This document shows, one piece after another, positions 3,056 through 20,290 of a stretch of DNA of 62,477 bases. This DNA is from Craspedostauros australis. Its lineage: Eukaryota. Every line of letters starts with the position of its first letter. Position 1 is the first letter of the stretch. The notes beneath the pieces are model-generated. The model was not told where the DNA came from and made no database searches. It was given only the letters and a program-made list of their open reading frames with translations. Made by a program: the position numbers and the translations under genes. Where the stretch lies: NCBI GenBank assembly GCA_030167865.1, contig JALAGF010005348.1:1-62477 (forward strand). Direction: 5' to 3'.

Positions 3056-6000
3056 CTAGCCAGCGGGCACTGGATTGATGAGTCTATTTTGGAAGCTGCC
3101 TTGAAGGAGGAAAGTGAAAGGGAGCTTATTCCGCTTGCACAGAACGATCAGATTCCACCACAGGGTGGCACGGATGTCTGCTTGGCCTCTCCACTCCGGA
3201 TCCAGGATGGCCTCGCCGCCGTTTTCTCCGGACACGAGCGGGTGCAGCTCCTTGCGCAGTACCCACGGCGACAGAAATTCGCAGTACAGCTGCGTCCCAG
3301 CCCCCTGCGAGCCCATGAAGGTTGGAGATGTGCACGAGACAGAGAACCGTGGCACGAATTTGTGGTTGCATTGAGGGCAGGTCGTGGTGAAGTCCTGAAA
3401 CTCGCAGGGCTTCCACCCGGCGATGATGTGCGATTCCTCCATGGCATTGGAGCATCTCGGGCAACTGTCACCGCTCAGATCGATGGACAGACCTGGATAC
3501 AAGAAATCCAGCAGGCTCTCACCAAGAATGATCTGCTTCTCCAAGTGATCCGACACGGGCAGCTTCTTCTTTGCCTTCCTCTTTTTGCGTCGTCGATAAC
3601 GACGGCGGCGGCGATTGTTGATTTCGGTCTGCTGCTTCTTGTGCGGTGTCAACCAATCGAGCATGGATGTGCTGATTGCGGACTGCAAGTAGCTTTCCCG
3701 ATTGGAGGTCACGGAAGCGCCATCCGACGACGCGTCGGACATGAAGTCGCTGCCTTCCTCGTCGGATGACGAGATGGCACCCGTCTGTGTCGTCGACGCC
3801 GTGGCGTCACCGCCCGCCGAGTTGAGCTTGCGCTTGAGGAAGGTCGCGTACGCATCCGATGTGCGGCTGCGCACGAATTGATCCCTTTTCGGCGAGTCCT
3901 TCGTCCCGTTGCCTTCGTGGTGCGCGAAAGCCTCCATGAAGCAGGTCAGGACCTCCTTGTCGGGGACCAGCCCTTCCTTCTTCATGGCGTCGATCAGTTC
4001 CAAGGCTCGCTTCGTGTCGCCGCAGCGACCGCAGGCAGCCATGAGCGATTTGAAGAGATCGCTATTGGAGGCAAGACCGCGTGCTTCCATGATTTTCAGA
4101 GTATCCATCGCCAAGTCCAGCTGGGCGGTGGCCACATCTCTGGCCTCCTCGTACTCAGCAACATGCTCATCTGTATCCAGGAGGCTCGTGCCTCGTTGTT
4201 CGTGAGGCGACAGCGTGAATTTGGAAATCACATCGTAGGCATGCTGCGCCTGCGTATTTATCTCGTCAATGTAGCCCTGCGGACATGGTGAGGTGGTGAC
4301 GTAGACCACTGCATTGCTCACGGCTCCTCCATCTGGACATGGCTCGCACATGGTGCGGAACGTCAGGTCATCCAAATTCGTTTTGGAGAGCTGGAAGACA
4401 TCATAGTCATCCTCCTTTTGCTCCTTGGTCTCGTCTGCGATGTTGGCGCCCTTGGCATCGGCTGCTTTCGCGTCAACCGCAGAAGTGGACGCGGCGTCGG
4501 TGATTGGACTGACAGTGGCAGCGTCAGTGGCAACAACAGCAACGGTATCAGTAGAGGTAGCAGCTGTATCAGAGGTCGCAACGGTGGCAGCAGTGACGCT
4601 GGTGGCAGAAGCGTTGATGCTCGGGCTGGTACCGAGGTGAAATGTTTCATCATCGACGATCGTCTCCATCTTGAGTTCGCGGCGTTTGCGTTGGAATTGC
4701 TCCCATTCCCGCCCGATCACGGCCGTGTAGGCAAAGAAGAAGACTGTGAAGGACATTGCCTCCTCCGACATGCTGTCGTAATCGCCTCCCAGGAACAAGT
4801 TCTTGTCGCCGTGCTCCTTCAGCGGCGACATGGCTCGCAGGTGTGAGACCAACGCGGCTTGTCGATCGAACTCCGCCGTGATCATCTTTGGAATTGGTCG
4901 CGGTTCCGCGAACAAGGTCTCATCGAACGCGTCAGGCCATGACTTGTACGTCGAGTGCTTGCCGTCGGTGGTGCTGTCGGTGAAGTGCTTCGGCAGATCG
5001 GCTTCATTCGGTTGGATGGCTTGGAACTTGGTGAGGGCCTTGTGTGTTTTGGCCGACTGCAAGAACGGCGTCTCGACCTTGCGCAGCTTCAACCGGCTCC
5101 GGTTCAGTTTGGCATCGATGCTTTGATCGAAGAAGATGATGTCAGGAAGCCCAGGGCTGTACAGGCGCTTGGTCATGAAGCTGTCGAATTGCTGCGTCAT
5201 ACACATCTCGGTGAGGAAGTCTTCGTATTCAGGTTTTTGGGATGCGATGAAGCCATCACGGTCGAAGGATCGTCGCATGCTCCAGGTCATCCATTCTGAG
5301 GATCCAGGGATGGGCGACAGGGGCGAATCATCCTTGGGCATGTCCAGGAACTTGCGATAGTCCTTGAGGACGGCAACGAAGAAACGCAGGAAAGCCTCCT
5401 GGACTGTATCCCACTGGCTCTGGTCCTTCATGATCGCCTCTTCGTCGACGATGTTTTCTGAATCCGGCGTGAACTGCAAGTTGAAGGCATGATCGTAGGT
5501 GTGGAGCTTCTCCTTCCATCTCGTATCGCCCTTGTCCCTGCACATCGACTTGAACTTCCAGAAGCTGAGCTTGTTGGACGTGACTTGCTTGTACTCCTGC
5601 TCGAGTCCCCGGGTCTTCCAGAACAGGTGCCCTGCTGTGTCCTCCAACGCCGATTGGAGCTTGGACCACTTCTTGCCTGGCAGCGGCGGCAGCGGAGGCG
5701 TTGCCTGTCCGAAGAGGAGGCTATTTCGATCCAAATCCACGACGATCGTCTCTTCGTTGAGGTTCTGCTGCGCGCACAGCCAATTGTCTCTCGTGACACC
5801 GCATAGATACGGCACGGGTGCATCGAGCATGGGACAGAGGAAACGCGGCAGCATCGGGACGTAGAGATGCGTCCATTCCATCGGGAAAAGCAGGGAGCCA
5901 AGGATCTCTGCACATATCGTCAGGAGGGAGTACTGGCTGCTGACCAGGAGGATCTTCCGTTCCATGACGAGGCAGTACCACAGATGGAGGATGTTCTCGG

Positions 6001-10950: not shown

Positions 10951-13900
10951 ATGGTACGCAACAGCAGGCGCGCGGCAGCCAAGCCGGTCAACTACGCCGC
11001 AGAGCAGGAGTTCAGCGATGGCGACGTCTTCGAGGACAGCCCCGGTGAGGAGCCAACGCCAGTCAAGAAGAAGAGGTCACGCAAGTCAGGAGGCACCAGG
11101 GTGGTGGAGACCTTCAACGACGACGCCGAGGATGACGGCGTCTACCGCCCGCCCAAGCCCATCTTCACGGAGAAGGGTTACGATAGCAACCTCCCACCCA
11201 TCCGAGAACGATTCCCATTCATGCCCGAGTACGAGGCGGATGGATCTCCCAAGATCGATCTCATCGTGGGACGTCGTCCCATCGACGAGAATGAAAACAA
11301 GAACAAGCTCGGTGATGATGACGACGACGACGACGATGACGACGACAACAAGATGGGCGAAGATGCTGAAAACAACAACGACGCCAACGACGACCATGGT
11401 GAAGATGGTGCGGGCAGCGAAGGCAATGCCCCCAAGGGACGGTCAAGACGGCGCAGGTCATCGACCAAGGCCAGCAAGGCGAAAACCAAGAAGAACAAGA
11501 AACGCAACGCCGCGATCTTGGTGGAATACGAGTACCTCATCAAGTACAAGGGCAAATCCTACATGCACCTGGAATGGAAGAGGGGTGCCGACCTCGAGTC
11601 CATGGGCAAAACAGCCAAGGGCATGTACAGACGCTACCTCAAGAAGGTCGCGCAAGGCATCGATGATGAGCTCGAGGATCCCAACTTCGATCCCACTTAC
11701 GTCACGGCGCAAAAGATCATCGACCAGGCGGAACAGGAAATGACGGTGGAGCTTTCCGACAAGGAACTTCTCAAGTGGGAAAAACAACGAGAAAAGGAAC
11801 TTGCGGCAGAGGAAGGTAGCGACGATGAAGACATCGATGAAGGCGGCGACGCGACCGGGGACGACAAAGACAAAGAAAATGCCAACGAGGATGACAACAA
11901 TGAAGGTGCCGATGATGGCGATGGTGATGGCGCCAAAAAGAAGGAGGCTGACGCCGAAGATGATAGCAAAGAGAACAATGGCGACGATGGCGACGATGAC
12001 GACAAAAAAGACAAGCTTGGCGAGAGCGAGGACAAAGAAAAGGACCCAAAAAGCAAAGGTGAGTCTCGCATTTCATGTTCCGCGGTGCCCGGATTTTGCT
12101 GGTGTACCACACTACTTGTTGGCTGCATGCCAAGAAGACTTCAATGCTACGCATCGCTTCATGAGCAACTACCCATGCTGATTGCAAGCATTTGCAGATG
12201 CATCTGCCAAACCATGGTATTCTCACACTCTTCACTCTCTCCAATGACTTTCTTTGCTCGTCCTTCACATGCATACCAAACCGTATTCATCCGATCGTCT
12301 CGACTCCGCACACCACAGATGCTGCTGTGGAGGAATGGGGTGACGAGGAGATCGACTTTTCCGCTCTGACGATCGAGAGACTGCGAGGCGTCCTCATTAA
12401 GGATGGACCGTACTACCCCGTTTTCCCCAACTGCAACAATCCGTACCGAGATGGCTACGTCACGGAACCACCGAAGAGACCGAGGGCCTGCTACCTCTTC
12501 TTCCAATGCGCCATGCGATCCTACTTCCAAAAGCGCAACAAGACCGCGACTCAGGGGGAGCTCATGACGATCCTTGGCGATCACTGGCGCACCATGACGG
12601 ACGAGCAGCAAGCACCCTTCATCGAGCTCGCGAATGAAGAAGCCAGGCAGTACGAGAAGGAGAAGGCCATGCTGGAAAAGGCGCAAAAGCCAAACGAGAT
12701 GTGGCAGCCGATCCGGCGCTGCCGCATGGTGCTGGAGCGATTGGAGAAGGACAGCTTCGCCGACATCTTCCTGGAGCCTGTCGACCTCGAAGATTTTCCA
12801 GACTACGAGGACATCATCGACCAGCCGATGGATCTGGGGACCATCAGGAAGCGCCTCAACACGAAGAAGTACCAGGGGCCGGAACAGTTCGCCCGTGACA
12901 TGCGCAAGGTGTGGAACAACTGCAAGATCTACAACAGGCACGGCTCGGCCATCTGGCACGTTGCCGACTACATGTCCAAGCAATTCGAACGTCTGTACCA
13001 TGCCTGGGTGCTCGAGTTCCGCGAACGCTACCTGCGGTGGGCGCAGCCGAAGGCCCGGCCGTGGGAGCACACGTGCAGAGCCCATGACGGAAAATGCGGC
13101 ACGAAGGATGACCACATGGTGCTCTGCGACCACTGCGACGCCATGTACGGCTTCCGATGCGTCAAGCCGCCGCTGAAGAGGCTCCCCAAGGGCATCTGGC
13201 ACTGCCCCGACTGCAAACCAAAGCTGCATTCCGTGCGCGGTGTACGCATGATGTCCGCGATCGCAGAGCAGGCCGCTCGCAAGCGCGCCGAACTCGGAGA
13301 CACGCCGAAACGCAAGGTCAAGCAGATGATGTACCTTGTCAAGTGGGTCGGCTTGGGCTACGAGCATTGCACGTGGGAAACGAAGGACGATATTGGCAAC
13401 CTAGGCCTCATCGTCGGCTTCCACAAACTCAACAACTCGTATCCAGACGAGCCAGACATGCCTGCGGCTGTCATCGAGAAGCATCTGGATTCCACGAAGC
13501 ATATCCAAACGGAGAAGGCCGGGGGGCAGACCTTCATCCCACATCTGCGGTCGCAGCTGTACGCGCAGACACGAGCATTCCATTTCACCAAATTCGGTCT
13601 TGACGTGCCCGCGTTGGTATCTCAGCACTGTGGCTCCCGAACAAAGGCCATCACTTACACCCCACAGAACGACGTGATCCGGCGCGAAGTGCTCGGTTGC
13701 CTCACAGACTTGGTGGAACGCACCGCGACCAACCCAGAGAGGCATATTATGACCGTCACCAGCAGGCTACCGCCGTTGATGAGCGGCGAGTACGATGCCA
13801 TCATCCCGATCACCTCCAAAGGCTTGATGATGAACGTGGGCGAAATCAATGGATCCGTCGCATTCTTGGGATACAGACAGTTTCCCGACGGCAGTGCAGG

Positions 13901-16900
13901 CCCATCCGAAATCAAGCAACTCGTTCGCAACCCCGGCGACAAAATCATCGCAGTCGATGGCACCAGCACGGCCAAGAAGTCCTTCAAGGAGGTCATCAAC
14001 ATCCTCCGTGAGAGCGGAAAGAACAAGTTCGCCGTCATGCGCTTCCTGGAAAACAAGTTGTCTGTCTGCGCTGGTGAAATTGCCAGCGTGGGTGCCATCG
14101 GACGCTTTGTGATCGAGAGTCTCAAGGACAAATTCGCCACAGAGAGACGGCGAGCGATCGCCAACCGCAAGGACAACCTGCTTGAAGAAGAACAAGAAGA
14201 GGAGAAGCGGATAGAGGAATCCGATGGCAGCGCCGATGAAGAGTCCGATGAGGAATCGGAGGGAAGCTTCGAGCCAGAAAGCGATGAAGAGGATATCGGA
14301 ACCAAACTCGACAGCGGCGACAAGGCGACCATCAAGGACGGCGTCGCTCGCGGAGACATGGAGATCGATGAGCAGCAACAACAGCAACAGCAGGGTAACA
14401 ATGGCCAACAGCCCCAGACTTCAGCAGATAACGCAGGTGGAGAGCAAGCCAAAACAGCAGCAGGCGCCGACGCGGAGGCTGCTACAAACGATGCCGCCAA
14501 TGAACCAGATCCGCTGGAGAACGCAATGTTGAAGCGCCCCGAAACTACCAAGTCCATGGCCTACCGCCTGCTAGGTGTGGAGATTGATTACAGCAGCGAT
14601 GAAGGAGGTGACGAGGACTGTGCTTACTTCATCGATGGCGTCGATGGCACCTTTTCAACGCAAAAGGCTCTCGCAGCACGAGCGGCCAAGCAGATGGACG
14701 TCAAAAAAGGAGTTGGAGCTTCAGATGACGGTGAGCACAAGTCAGCAGCAAAAGCGGACGTGGATTCGGATGCGGACACATCATCGGTAGATGCCGATAG
14801 CGAAGCCAAGACCAATGAAAGCGCGGAAGAAGACGCCAAGCCAAAGGCAAAGGACAGCGATGCAGCCGGCACGAAAAAGGGCAAAGCTGAAGCGGAAGTC
14901 ACGTTGCCGGTGAGGAGAACAGATTTCACGTCGCTGGGTGATAGGAGCAAGCTCGCCGTCGCCGTCGCACTTTCCAGCAAAATGCCAGACCCAGTTGACT
15001 TTGATCGATACCCACTGCCGTCGACGAAGGCGGTGGAGGAACAGAGGCAGAAGGAACTCGAAGCGCAGAAGAAGCTGGAGGAGATTGCCGAAGAGAAGCA
15101 AGTTGCGCTGCAGGTAAAGAAGTCGACAGTGAAGATCGAGCAGGTCAGCATCAACACCAACGAAGCGGTGCACGTTTGGGCCAATGCCGAAACTGCCGCA
15201 GGAACATTGCAGATCAATCTCAACCAGCTGCGACAGATCCTGGGAGGAGAGTACGATGAAGACTTGGGAGACGAGCTCGGTGGCTTCAAGTGGAGGTACG
15301 CAGATGTTGGGGCGGTAGTGACAGCGCCCACCAACGAGAAGGACTCCAAGCGAAAAAAGAAAGGCCGCGAGGCCTGGTTGGAGTTCCGCGACAAGCTGTA
15401 CGACCCCAGCGAACCGCACATGTACAAGAACAACAACCGCCTGCGTGATTACCAGGTGGAGGGTGTGAACTGGCTTGCAAGCACGTTCTACAGGAAGCAC
15501 GGTTGCATCTTGGCAGATGAAATGGGACTCGGGAAGGTAAGGTCCAGTGGTCGGAATGTCGTGTTGATCTTGCGCGCTGGTCGCGTTGCTAGATGAAGGA
15601 CGTTGGATTGGAAGGTTGTGTGTATTGCATCAGCATCAGCGCTTCCTTTCTCTCTGTCACACCAGCTCACTCACCTCATGCATCAAACTACATCGCACAC
15701 TGCTCCACCATCACTTTCATTTTCATTATATGTATCATCACACGTACCATCACACGTACCATCACAGACTGTGCAAATCGTCACGTACATCGAGCACTTG
15801 TTCCGTGTCGAAAAGATTCGTCGTCCGTACCTTGTGGTTGTGCCTCTCTCCACTGTGGAGCATTGGCGTCGAGAATTCGAAGGTTGGACGGACATGGTCT
15901 GCTGCGTCTACCACGACAGGCAGAGGGTGTGGCGTGATGTCCTCCGTGAGTACGAATGGTACTACGAGGACCGGCCGCATACGCCGGAATACTTGAAGTT
16001 CGACGTTCTGGTGACAACGTACGATACCCTCATCGGAGACTTCGACGTGATCAGCCAGATCCCGTTCAGAGCAGCCGTGGTGGATGAGGCACATCGATTG
16101 AGGAATCAGAAGGGAAAGCTCCTCGAGTGCATGAAGGAGATCAGCGCGAAGGGAACCCTGCATTACGGATACCAAAGCCGCGTGCTGATGTCTGGCACCC
16201 CGTTGCAAAACGACCTCACGGAGTTGTGGACGCTGCTCAATTTCATCGAACCGATCCTGTTCCCCACCCTCGACCACTTCCAGGCACAATTCGGCAACAT
16301 GGCCAACCGTGGACAGGTCGAGGCGTTGCAACAAAAGATCTCACCATTCATGCTGCGGCGCGTCAAGGAAGATGTGGCGAAGGATATCCCCGCAAAGGAG
16401 GAGACGATCATCGATGTGGAACTCACGAGCATCCAGAAGCAGTACTACCGCGCCATCTTCGAGCACAACCATGCCTTCCTCAACATGGGAACGTCACGAT
16501 CCAGCGCACCGAAGCTGATGAACATCCAGATGGAGCTGCGAAAGGTCTGCAACCATCCGTGCCTCTTGGAGGGTGTCGAGCACCGTGAACAGGAGCGCCA
16601 ATTCAAGGAATTCCTTGAGCGCGGTGAGTTCGAAGGAAAGAGCCCGGAGCAGCAACAGCACATGCTCAACGAGCAGATGTACATCATGTCGAGCGGAAAG
16701 ATGGTCCTGATGGACAAGCTCCTGCCGAAGCTGCGCCAGGAGGGTCACAAGATCCTCATCTTCAGTCAGATGGTTCGCATGCTGGACCTGATCTCGGAGT
16801 ACTGCGAATTCCGCAGTTTTCCGTATGAGCGTCTGGACGGTCGAGTGCGCGGCACGGACAGGCAAAAGTCCATCGATCGGTTCGAACGTGACTCGAACTC

Positions 16901-19900
16901 CTTCCTTTTCCTGCTGTCCACGAGAGCGGGAGGTGTGGGAATCAACCTCACGGCCGCCGACATCTGCATCATCTTCGACAGCGACTGGAACCCTCAGAAT
17001 GACGTGCAGGCGCAGGCCCGTTGCCATCGTATCGGGCAGACGAAGGACGTCCGCATCTACCGTCTTGTGACGAGCCGAACCTTCGAGCAGGAAATGTTCG
17101 ACAGGGCCAGCAAGAAGCTAGGTTTGGAACAGGCAGTGTTGGGTACTTTCGGCCAGGACAACGACGATGACAAGCCGACGAACAAGGAGATGGAGCAGTT
17201 GCTGAAGAAGGGCGCTTATGCCCTCATCGAGGATGAGAATGATGAGATCGGCAAAGCTTTCTGCGCAGACGACATCGATAGCATCCTGGCCAAGCGCACG
17301 AGAACACGCGTCGTGGAAGGAGCCAAGACGGCGTCGTGGCTGAACAAGCAGGGCATGGTGGTGAGCAAGTCCAAATTCACCAGCGATAGCAAATCGGCCG
17401 GCTTGGACATGGACGATCCCCTGTTTTGGCAGAAGGTGATGCCTGATTTCATCACTCCCACCATCATGCTGCAGAAGATGCACGACCTGTCGGACGAAGT
17501 CTTCGGAACGACCACCAAGCGAGGTCGTGGCAGAGGCCGTGGACGTGGTCGACCGAAGGCGCCCGAAAACGAGGCCACCAACGTAGACAACCCCCAGAAC
17601 GGCGAAACATCATCCGGGAATCCAAACGACATGGCTGCAGACAACAAACCAGAGCAACAGGGTGACAATGCCATGATGAATGGAATCAACGATTCGAACG
17701 GAGGGGAAGAAAAGAAGGACAACGAAATCATGAATGGCGACGGGACCGGGAAAGATGCGAATGGGCACAGCAAGTCTGACGTTGTGGATATGGATGTCGA
17801 AGGAGGCGGGGATGGTGGCAAAGCGAACGAGCAGGGCAAAAGTCAAAATGGTGGAGGCGATGCCGATGCTGATGCGGACGAGAATGACGAAGACGACGAC
17901 GATGATGATGATGAGGAGGAAGATGGCGAGAAGAAGTACAAACTCACACTGACTAACAAGAGGAAGGTCGCCAAGTTCATGTCTGATCTCAAGAGCATGA
18001 TGGATGACATTTTTGACGAGGCGGAGGATGACGCGTTGCCGGCAGAAGAGAAGCAAACTGCGCAAAAGCTGCTGCTTACCATCAGCGTCAAGGAAAAGCT
18101 GTTCAGCGAGGATCAGCGACACCTTGCCAAGACCATGCTCAACCGCCTCGAAGGCAATCGTCGGCGTCGCTGCCGTACCTCGGACATGCCATCCACACCC
18201 AAGCGGCGCGGCCGCGAGAGCTCTGGCAGCAGGACCCCGATCCGTGAGGAGCTCCTCATCACCAGCACAAAGAAACCCAAGCGCAAACGTCGCACGAAGG
18301 CCGAGATTTTGGCAGACAACGAGCGCAAGAGGCTAGCGCAGGCCGGAGGATCAGACGACGAGGGCCGCGGCAATGGAGACGAACTGTTCAAGACGCCCTC
18401 GGATGATGAAGCCGGATGGTCTGACGGCGATGACATCTTCGACGCGAGCAAGAAGAAGATCGTCATCAGCCAGAAGGAGGCGAACCGCCGTCGCCAGTGG
18501 GCCGCCGGTGACGATGCAGCGACTGCCGCAGGACGCGCCTGGCCAGCCTTCCCGCGCGATATGGTGCAGAAAGTGTTGCACACCGTCCTGGAGGAGGTCA
18601 TGATCATCGATGACGCTAACGGTGGCATCTTCTCCGTGCCTGTGCCAGAGGATGAGTTCCCTGAGTACTACGACCAAATCAAGAAGCCGATGGATTACGG
18701 GACCATGCAGAAGAAGCTCGAGCGCAACGAGTACCGATCGGTCCAGGCGATGCAAAGGGACTTCATCCTCGTCATGCAGAATTGTCTGCAGTTCAACTCG
18801 CCGAACTCCAACATCGTCACGGAGGCAAGGCAGCAGGCGCTCATGAGGCCATCGATCCTGCGAAAGGCCGCTCTGAAGCACAACCTCTTCCTTGCCGAAG
18901 ATGGATCCGTTCTTACCATCTCGGATGAGACCGACAAGAAGGTCCAGGCAAACGCAGCCACAGCGGAAGGGGCCAAGGGTGGAGCTACCCCCAAGAAACG
19001 ACGCAGGAGGCGGACCAAGGCCGAAATGGAAGAAGCCAGGAGAAAGGAACGAGAAGAACGGGAAACCGCTGAAAGGCTGGGTCTCCCAATCAAGAAGGTA
19101 CGTGATGGAGTAAATGGAGTTTGTACGTGGGGTCGCGCATTTGCGAACTGCCCGAGGTACTCCGCAAGGCAAGATCACTTGTCCATCTGCTCTCGCGTGT
19201 TGTTGCACAGTTCATGTTTTCCTCACCGAAATCACAATCTCAATTCTGCCCTCCTGTTTTTGCTCTGCCACGATTGCAACTTGGACGCAACTTCACAAAC
19301 ACTCGGCGTCTTGAAACGCTGTAATACTATTGCACGACTATGCATTTCCCCTTCACGGATACAACGGTTTCACAGAAGAGGGTCAGACGAACGAAATCTG
19401 AAATGATTGCGGCGGCGGCGGCAGCAGCAGCCGAAAAGGAGAAGAAGGCGAAAGAGGCAGGCACGCCAAAGATAAAGGTCAAGGTAAAGAGCGAAAAGGA
19501 TTCACCAGCATCGCCGACCAAGAAGAAGCCGAGGATTAAGCTCAGCCTGGGTGGAACGGAAAATGGTTCCGCGCCCCACAGCGACAAAGTCGCAAAGAGG
19601 AAGCGACCTGACGACGATGTCACTCCGGCGAAGACGAAGGAACCTCAGGATTCGAAGGAGCAAGCCCAACGCGGCACGCCAGTGAGGAAGCGCACGAAAC
19701 AGGTGTCGACTCCAAGGCGAGGCAACAAGAAAACCAGAAGCTCACCGCACGGGGACGTACGCCCGGGCTCTTCGGAAGCAGGCGGGTCGTTCGGAGACGA
19801 CGGCGGATCCAACGATCCCGGTGCGGTTTACTTCCTGCTTTCCCAGATCAGGAGCGAACGCGAAATCCTGGACACGAAGTTCTCTTCTGCCAGACGCAAC

Positions 19901-20290
19901 TTGACGAAGCGAGGGCCGTGGAAGCTTCCCAACGTCTTGAAAGACCACTTCAAAGAGGTGGCTTTGGCTGCCATTCAGAAGATGAATCGCAATGACAAGT
20001 ATTCCGTCTTCGTCGAGGCGGTGACAGATTCCGAAGCGCCTGGGTATTTCGACGTCGTGAAGAGGCCAATCGACATGTCCATTATCCGTCAGAACGTCGA
20101 CGATGGCAAGTATGGGTCAGGGTCGGAGGCAGCGACGAAGTTCTACGAAGACGTCCTGCTCATGTTCGACAACTGCGCCCTGTACAACGATGAGGATGGC
20201 GAAGTCATCGAGGAAGCAACGAGATTGCTGGGCCTGATCCCGGAGGTCTTTTCGGCAGCCTGCGTCTCGGTCAACAGGAAGAAGAAATAA
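10951..20290 (+). CDS. CHD6-9-type SNF2 chromatin remodeller, ~2856 aa (chromo, HMG box, bromo, PHD, chromo, PDZ, NUMOD1-like, SNF2 ATPase/helicase C, AT-hook, 2 further bromodomains); exons 10951-12058, 12319-15536, 15768-19097, 19376-20290
   Basis: Four ORFs join in frame through GT-AG introns (donors gtgagt, gtaagg, gtacgt; acceptors cag). Walker [12 protein letters not shown] spans intron 2. Other motifs: [59 protein letters not shown] (CHD7-like). Chromo motifs [15 protein letters not shown] and [16 protein letters not shown]. Confidence 0.93.

Follow-up and report, generated by a model that had tools for sequence, protein, structure and literature searches.

The analysed stretch of DNA, hereafter the window, is a 62,477-nucleotide contig of Craspedostauros australis (JALAGF010005348.1, assembly GCA_030167865.1). 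On its forward strand, which carries all the features described here, positions 10951–20290 are occupied by a four-exon gene for a CHD-type chromatin remodeller of approximately 2856 amino acids, as reconstructed from open reading frames (ORFs) and splice junctions. We consider it likely that in this protein a cassette of chromatin reader domains, comprising an HMG box, a bromodomain and a PHD-like zinc finger, is nested within the loop that connects strands beta1 and beta2 of the second chromodomain.

Exons 1 (10951–12058), 2 (12319–15536) and 3 (15768–19097) are ORFs delimited by GT..AG junctions, and exon 4 (19376–20290) is an ORF that includes the stop codon. GT..AG borders and agreeing phases are found in the sequence at all three introns. 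Intron 1 (12059–12318) runs from the GT at 12059 to the AG at 12318 and divides a single codon, which reads GAT across the junction; intron 2 (15537–15767) interrupts the SNF2-related domain. Both the N- and the C-terminus of the product agree with those of the full-length diatom proteins P0001, P0005 and P0009. A pseudogene or a chance ORF was ruled out, as all four exons are 55–77% identical across many diatoms. Domain searches were performed with exon translations and uninterrupted orthologous ORFs in place of the assembled spliced protein.

The first chromodomain and the first half of the second are encoded by exon 1. Exon 1 could be a separate upstream gene, the remodeller beginning in exon 2. 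Intron 1 is deduced from the sequence alone, and the junction between exons 1 and 2 falls within an acidic low-complexity stretch, both of which leave room for such an artefact. However, the GT..AG borders and the phase agree and no alternative is free of stop codons. Moreover, a metagenome scan identified 51 loci related to the window gene, and in eight of these (L001, L005, L008, L010, L011, L013, L015 and L042) the region from chromodomain 1 to chromodomain 2 is a single unbroken ORF. Proteins P0001–P0025 begin like exon 1 (MVRNSRR.. versus MSDEPRRSRR..) and run on into the ATPase, which makes a division into two genes extremely improbable. Annotated proteins of Nitzschia, Seminavis and Mayamaea likewise carry both halves of chromodomain 2 in one ORF. 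A search of a collection of 5.8 billion proteins returned 296 matches from 1441 candidates; in the top 28 of the 120 matches listed, the HMG, bromodomain, chromodomain and SNF2 families occur together in one protein. The size of these 28 proteins, which include representatives from Nitzschia, Seminavis, Mayamaea and Thalassiosira, is approximately 1930–2870 residues, mostly 2400–2900.

Chromodomain 1 maps to 11245–11655. The Pfam Chromo match in exon 1 is weak (E value 0.0078, under the cut-off), and the domain was delimited by an AlphaFold2 model of the N-terminal half of the window protein (11206–11814) and by structure alignment. The beta1 strand (11245–11280) is separated from the region encompassing beta2, beta3 and the helices (11521–11655) by an insert of approximately 80 acidic and basic residues (11281–11520). 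The model features strands at residues 17–25, 108–114 and 123–126 and a helix at residues 135–150. Its residues 12–154 align to complete chromodomains across the insert, with Z scores of 7–8.3 over 52–60 of 52–60 residues, in agreement with the preliminary description of this DNA, made by inspection of the sequence, which had noticed that an acidic insert divides chromodomain 1. As in the CHD family, two chromodomains lie N-terminal to the ATPase, and in the window protein both appear to be interrupted in the beta1–beta2 loop.

The two halves of chromodomain 2 are far apart. The first (11698–11754) consists of the beta1 strand YVTAQKIID (11698–11724) and an acidic extension (11725–11754). It is followed by a helix leaving the chromodomain (11758–11811), which is conserved in the alignment and is predicted at residues 185–202 in the N-terminal-half model and 174–199 in a model of the orthologue L001. 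The second half (13308–13463) comprises a basic extension leading into beta2, the beta3 strand (HCTWE) and a C-terminal helix, and is preceded by a conserved returning helix (13236–13307; residues 550–562 in the L001 model) in which S, A, E, A, A, G and P positions are nearly invariant. The Pfam Chromo match at 13314–13403 is significant (E value 9.4e-09) and covers only positions 13–42 of the 53 in the profile, the first strand being absent. In phmmer searches, the second half matches chromodomain 2 of yeast Chd1 (E value 3.6e-08). The motif YLVKW starts at 13332, and 449 coding residues separate it from YVTAQKIID, close to the distance of about 440 residues given in the preliminary description.

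The two halves abut in P0331, a CHD relative of 1643 residues whose precomputed Pfam domains do not include the bromodomain family. A hidden Markov model (HMM) of the first half, searched against ten hand-picked relatives, matches P0331 at residues 963–982, DLFNPDYVEVEKVLDESE, with a domain E value of 8e-06; YLVKWRGLGYDEATWE starts at residue 993, 10 residues past the first-half motif. BLASTP aligns the exon 1 half of the window protein to P0331 residues 915–997 (E value 8e-11) and the exon 2 half to residues 991–1035 (E value 1e-08). Consequently, segments that are 449 residues apart in the window protein adjoin in a relative. The two proteins share the order of chromodomain 1, a short linker, a strand of the form F(N/D)P.Y(V/I)....(I/V)(I/L)D, and YLVKWxGLxYxxxTWE. 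We take P0331 to be CHD6–9-like on the basis of the motif of human CHD7-type proteins, and a short chromodomain linker followed by an FNPDYVEV-type strand, as seen in the window protein, is presumably a trait of CHD6–9 (subfamily III). The colinear alignment with P0331 bears out the CHD6–9-like motif that had been recognised in chromodomain 2 at the outset. The BLASTP alignment extends past beta1, such that the window segment DKELLKW (11758–11775) falls on LQYLVKW (988–997) of P0331. Both models show a helix at the window segment, and the match may be fortuitous or a vestige of what was once beta2.

The same data may be read in a different way. The cassette could lie in tandem between chromodomain 1 and a chromodomain 2 devoid of beta1, the putative first half being merely the tail of the linker; the sheet would then be completed otherwise, for instance by a histone tail bound there, as happens in chromodomains of the HP1 type. 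Pfam returns two separate Chromo matches and no split domain, and phmmer sets the first-half segment on the linker of yeast Chd1 (2h1e, residues 100–110) and not on beta1, with a non-significant E value of 0.028. Against this stands P0331, in which the first-half motif is followed after 10 residues by YLVKW, as in a single chromodomain.

Structure predictions also bear on the choice between the two readings. The L001 orthologue is 77% identical to the window protein, and 635 of its residues were modelled with AlphaFold2 from an alignment of 36 rows. The mean predicted local distance difference test (pLDDT) score is 74 and the predicted template modelling (pTM) score is 0.51. The beta1 strand and its acidic extension form one unbroken 15-residue strand (residues 157–171, equivalent to 11707–11751 in the window), with a pLDDT of 74–82, given here and below as means over blocks of 10 residues. 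The basic extension and beta2 similarly form one unbroken 13-residue strand (residues 567–579, block-mean pLDDT 75–88), followed in the second half by a strand at 588–590 and a helix at 598–608. The strand at 567–579 extends seven residues upstream of the usual beta2 and, if the cassette and a beta1-less chromodomain were simply in tandem, would need another partner. No other unpaired strand of such length is found in the model, as chromodomain 1 and the PHD-like finger contain only short strands that are accounted for, and the two long strands are therefore left only with each other as partners of matching length. In a control in which the N-terminal half of the window protein was folded alone, the first-half segment (residues 165–184) is coil, while chromodomain 1 still folds; the 15-residue strand thus appears only when the C-terminal half is present.

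Charge patterns follow the same division. Eighty proteins matched the HMMs of both halves, and 61 were retained, near-duplicates included, after 19 had been removed by position or regular-expression filters. The insert ranges from 258 to 454 residues in these relatives. Without exception, a net negative charge (mean −3.5) is carried by the 10 residues that follow beta1, and a net positive one (mean +4.5) by the 10 that precede YLVKW; this complementarity of the flanks in all 61 relatives speaks against a tandem arrangement. When the two halves of the window protein were folded as separate chains with ESMFold2, a score of 0.57 was obtained in each of three runs, compared with 0.00 for the best of three controls; contact agreement between the runs was at least 90% and the pLDDT of the partner was at least 68, and the outcome was rated as weak support. 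Of 78 solved complexes, 51 attain the mark, compared with 2 of 108 mismatched pairs. Passes at scores of 0.60 or less comprise only 5 of the 78 solved complexes, and all four passing mismatches of 180.

Several points weigh against nesting. In the weak-support band of ESMFold2, a pass is more likely to be false than true unless the pairing was probable beforehand, and likeness to solved tandem chromodomains may in part contribute to the pass. Chromatin proteins often carry acidic and basic tracts, and kinship among the sequences is a confounder, so that charge complementarity is weak evidence. The pairing of the strands is deduced from DSSP strings. The AlphaFold2 model is that of an orthologue and not of the spliced window protein. 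Finally, searches of solved structures with the full L001 model, including Foldseek, listed bromodomain entries only, some with adjoining domains.

On balance, the abutment of the halves in P0331, the strand that forms only with the second half present, the charge pattern in 61 of 61 relatives and the weak ESMFold2 signal together favour a reader cassette inserted in a chromodomain loop, as had originally been proposed, and we regard the tandem arrangement as unlikely. The structure prediction suggested in the preliminary description as a check was thus answered on the orthologue in part: a long strand is present at each half, whereas the co-folding of the halves is something we infer from these strands rather than see. 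According to the nested reading, the beta1–beta2 hairpin loop of chromodomain 2 would be expanded to approximately 450 residues, accommodating an acidic linker, the HMG box, the bromodomain and the PHD-like finger. The halves would rejoin through a long antiparallel two-stranded ribbon, in which the acidic strand after beta1 pairs with the basic strand before beta2, and the cassette would consequently project from the double chromodomain on a stalk.

The components of the cassette predicted in the preliminary description, namely an acidic tract, an HMG box, a bromodomain and a PHD finger between the two halves, were all recovered by Pfam or sequence inspection at or near the expected positions. 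The acidic low-complexity linker occupies the end of exon 1 (11815–12058). It has a pLDDT below 50 in the L001 model, corresponds to a gappy part of the alignment (columns 230–400) and varies in length among orthologues. The acidic linker leading from the first half to the HMG box is highly variable; for instance, a long (SQ)n repeat is present in L008 (529–2658; alignment columns 300–420). As judged from the alignment, the putative stalk and the domains are conserved, and the tether is free to vary.

The HMG box (12471–12668) is recognised by the Pfam profiles HMG_box (E value 6.4e-12; 46.2 bits, cut-off 25.4) and HMG_box_2 (E value 4e-09), features three helices at residues 294–358 of the L001 model, and is flanked by long acidic tracts. 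Bromodomain 1 (12720–12968; Pfam E value 3.7e-24) carries the conserved Asn of the ..CKIYN motif, a residue that anchors acetyl-lysine, and the C[KR]x[YF]N pattern is kept in all 61 relatives. The L001 model aligns to solved, ligand-bound bromodomains with Z scores of 15–16.6 and a root-mean-square deviation (rmsd) of approximately 1 Å.

Set against the Pfam PHD cut-off of 24, the zinc finger (13095–13214) scores 23.8 bits within its context and 30.2 bits when scanned by itself, and the block-mean pLDDT of the region is 81–87 in the L001 model. Alignment with the relative L042, which has His at the canonical position (DAMYHMFC), places Gly there in the window protein (DAMYGFRC), and not Phe as had been read initially. 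The finger lacks the C4HC3 set of zinc ligands and, on its sequence, is best called PHD-like. Among the 61 relatives, 23 have G, S, N or A in place of the His, and all 23 are diatom-type. Diatom-type fingers, that of the window protein included, feature an extra conserved Cys (C-x6-C, DGKC), and their second ligand position (C-x2-[CHST]) is variable. In 32 of the 61 relatives, which are of the type without HMG box, the His is kept and the canonical C4HC3 set is present. A search of the ESM Atlas returned only generic bromodomain and PHD clusters (0.77–0.80, under the level that counts).

The loss of the His in diatom-type proteins speaks for an insert that is mainly structural or regulatory. 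In an autoinhibitory arrangement of this sort, the PHD-like finger may not bind histone tails, and acidic tracts, which are long around the HMG box, may act as DNA mimics or make intramolecular contacts with the HMG box or the ATPase; a pTM of 0.51 leaves the arrangement of the domains open. The bromodomain, however, retains its acetyl-lysine Asn motif in every relative and closely superimposes on ligand-bound homologues, the finger taken alone exceeds the Pfam cut-off and is modelled at good pLDDT, and the His persists in relatives without an HMG box. We hold a mainly structural or regulatory insert to be rather doubtful, and prefer to view the cassette as a set of candidate readers.

The preliminary description had suggested that the architecture might be specific to diatoms. 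To judge from sequence matches, the cassette is not diatom-specific, since its bromodomain and PHD part recurs in oomycetes, in a chrysophyte and among brown algae. A bromodomain and a PHD finger, without a Pfam HMG box, are found at the same position in the brown algae Ectocarpus, Ascophyllum and Scytosiphon, the chrysophyte Chromulina and the oomycete Peronosclerospora (P0040), as well as in a record nominally assigned to the foraminifer Bolivina. The HMG box is detected by Pfam only in diatom-type proteins; an HMG-like stretch is discernible by eye in two non-diatom relatives (P0033 and L029/P0034). Two in-frame stops at 3301–3378 of L029, which is the same gene as P0034, mark a probable intron between the HMG-like stretch and the bromodomain, at a position different from that of the intron in the window. 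An exhaustive profile search collected 29,083 proteins at E values of 0.001 or less. The second-half motif was found in 35 of the 149 listed representatives scanned, with a bromodomain or PHD motif upstream in most.

Downstream of chromodomain 2, a PDZ-like segment (13740–14075) precedes the ATPase. It matches PDZ_6 (E value 7.3e-4; 19.7 bits, cut-off 27) and PDZ (E value 0.014; 16.2 bits, cut-off 23.2), both under the cut-off, is conserved in the consensus, and corresponds to precomputed PDZ families in the relatives P0315 and P0258. A PDZ domain is unusual for a CHD remodeller. A highly conserved motif located between this segment and the ATPase (15123–15302, STVKIEQ...AAxTLQ...GGFKWRYA) is present in all orthologues, including L042/P0035; no credible Pfam family was detected in the stretch 15105–15320, and the motif is presumably similar to the small helix-turn-helix modules with which homing endonucleases bind DNA. 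The SNF2-type ATPase (15450–17036) is identified across intron 2 by the Pfam SNF2-rel_dom profile (E value 1.4e-55), and Helicase_C (16704–17036) has an E value of 1.3e-24. The best solved relatives of the ATPase are CHD1 and Chd1 (E value 8e-112), as expected of a CHD-family motor.

Two further bromodomains map to the C-terminal region, bromodomain 2 at 18603–18830 (Pfam E value 3e-19) and bromodomain 3, in exon 4, at 19967–20221 (E value 4.1e-20). The window protein features three bromodomains in all, two of them in the C-terminal third, where PHD fingers are found in oomycete-type relatives. No BRK or SANT family was detected by Pfam at E values of 0.1 or less in any exon, the two C-terminal bromodomains being present instead, and for this reason we do not class the window protein as a member of CHD6–9. 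A C-terminal zf-CXXC domain (PF02008) is found in the relatives P0015–P0017, P0020, P0025, P0034 and P0037, some of them diatom-type and others not, and no such match was obtained in the window protein. The accessory modules predicted in this family vary between lineages.

If its modules behave as their families do, the cassette would bind DNA through the HMG box, acetyl-lysine through the bromodomain and a histone tail through the PHD-like finger. The double chromodomain of Chd1 and CHD4 lies against both the ATPase and the DNA of the nucleosome, so that a cassette engaged with its ligands could direct the motor to its targets and possibly act as a gate for it. A stalked cassette could add contacts with DNA, acetyl-lysine and histone tails, and might couple them to the chromodomain gate. 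By analogy with these families, the protein may function as a multivalent nucleosome reader-remodeller. A bolder proposal is that the split chromodomain is an ancient mechanical coupling device, stramenopile-wide and perhaps shared by the whole stramenopile–alveolate–rhizarian (SAR) group, in which the stalk relays engagement of the cassette with acetylated nucleosomes and acetylation directly switches on the CHD motor. We find this improbable at present; if true, nested reader domains would be known from a chromodomain for the first time.

CHD remodellers are usually pictured as beads on a string, with readers in series before the motor, while here whole readers are apparently placed inside a chromodomain loop. 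If nesting is real, it would provide an example from nature of a chromodomain with domains inserted into it, and a testable way in which the chromodomain gate of a CHD motor could respond to histone acetylation or to the shape of DNA. Two changes in the diatom lineage, an HMG box acquired and a PHD His lost, would be markers for the evolution of stramenopile chromatin. The idea can be put to the test, as diatoms are amenable to genetic manipulation.

Folds interrupted by whole domains are known in other proteins. Split PH domains occur in PLC-gamma and syntrophin, and a RING domain lies inside the PHD of CBP/p300. In these, as would be the case here, a small fold is interrupted in a loop and reassembles around the inserted domains, but the host fold is not a chromodomain. 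CBP/p300 also shares the bromodomain-then-PHD order, and its modules were listed by Foldseek, at a poor rmsd of 11–16 Å. Among CHD proteins, the Mi-2 group (CHD3/4/5) features an HMG-box-like region and two PHD fingers before the tandem chromodomains. HMG-like, PHD and chromodomain modules are thus carried on one CHD polypeptide, as in the window protein, but in Mi-2 they are arranged in series ahead of the chromodomains, none is nested, and bromodomains are lacking. CHD1 and yeast Chd1 (2b2w, 2h1e, 3mwy and 5o9g) provide the best solved matches for the ATPase and chromodomain 2. Chromodomain 1 of CHD1 reportedly carries an insert in the beta1–beta2 loop, as does chromodomain 1 of the window protein; in CHD1, in contrast, the insert is short and contains no domain. 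CHD1 further differs in having a SANT-SLIDE DNA-binding region, none of which was detected by Pfam in the window protein.

The preliminary description had presented the architecture as new, a claim that does not hold for the linear order of domains. In Table 2 of a 2014 survey (PMC4030286), the Phytophthora infestans protein PITG_03401, a “Chromodomain-containing protein (D)”, is given the order Chromo-Bromo-PHD-Chromo-PDZ-SNF2. This entry lists the domains and does not present the second chromodomain as split. Going by that record, PITG_03401 resembles the window protein in having a bromodomain and a PHD between the chromodomains and a PDZ before SNF2. It differs in having no HMG box, in keeping the PHD His, and in carrying extra C-terminal PHD fingers in place of the two bromodomains of the window protein.

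CHD1 of Tetrahymena thermophila has a bromodomain between two chromodomains as well as PHD fingers, and clusters with human CHD6–9 (PMC12361904). In this review, the placement of a bromodomain between chromodomains is described as not seen outside Tetrahymena, a statement contradicted by the stramenopile relatives reported here; nesting, if real, would correct this printed view. As described there, the Tetrahymena protein is, like the window protein, a CHD remodeller with a bromodomain between its chromodomains; it differs in being a ciliate protein for which no HMG box is listed, a comparison made by description only. Tetrahymena CHD1 was not among the best 150 matches of the exhaustive profile search, and none of 15 long multi-stretch matches checked for it had an SNF2 motif or a chromodomain.

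According to these sources, the linear architecture had been recorded before in oomycetes, and one like it in a ciliate. Our literature search, which left subscription journals and supplements outside its reach, found no split, interrupted or discontinuous chromodomain and none hosting reader domains, and wider queries yielded reviews alone besides PMC4030286 and PMC12361904; in the literature searched, the nested reading, the gain of the HMG box in the diatom lineage and the change of PHD ligand appear to be undescribed. An uninterrupted counterpart is P0331, which shares with the window protein the CHD6–9-like order of chromodomain 1, linker, beta1 motif and YLVKW, and which has a loop of 10 residues where the window protein has a cassette of 449.

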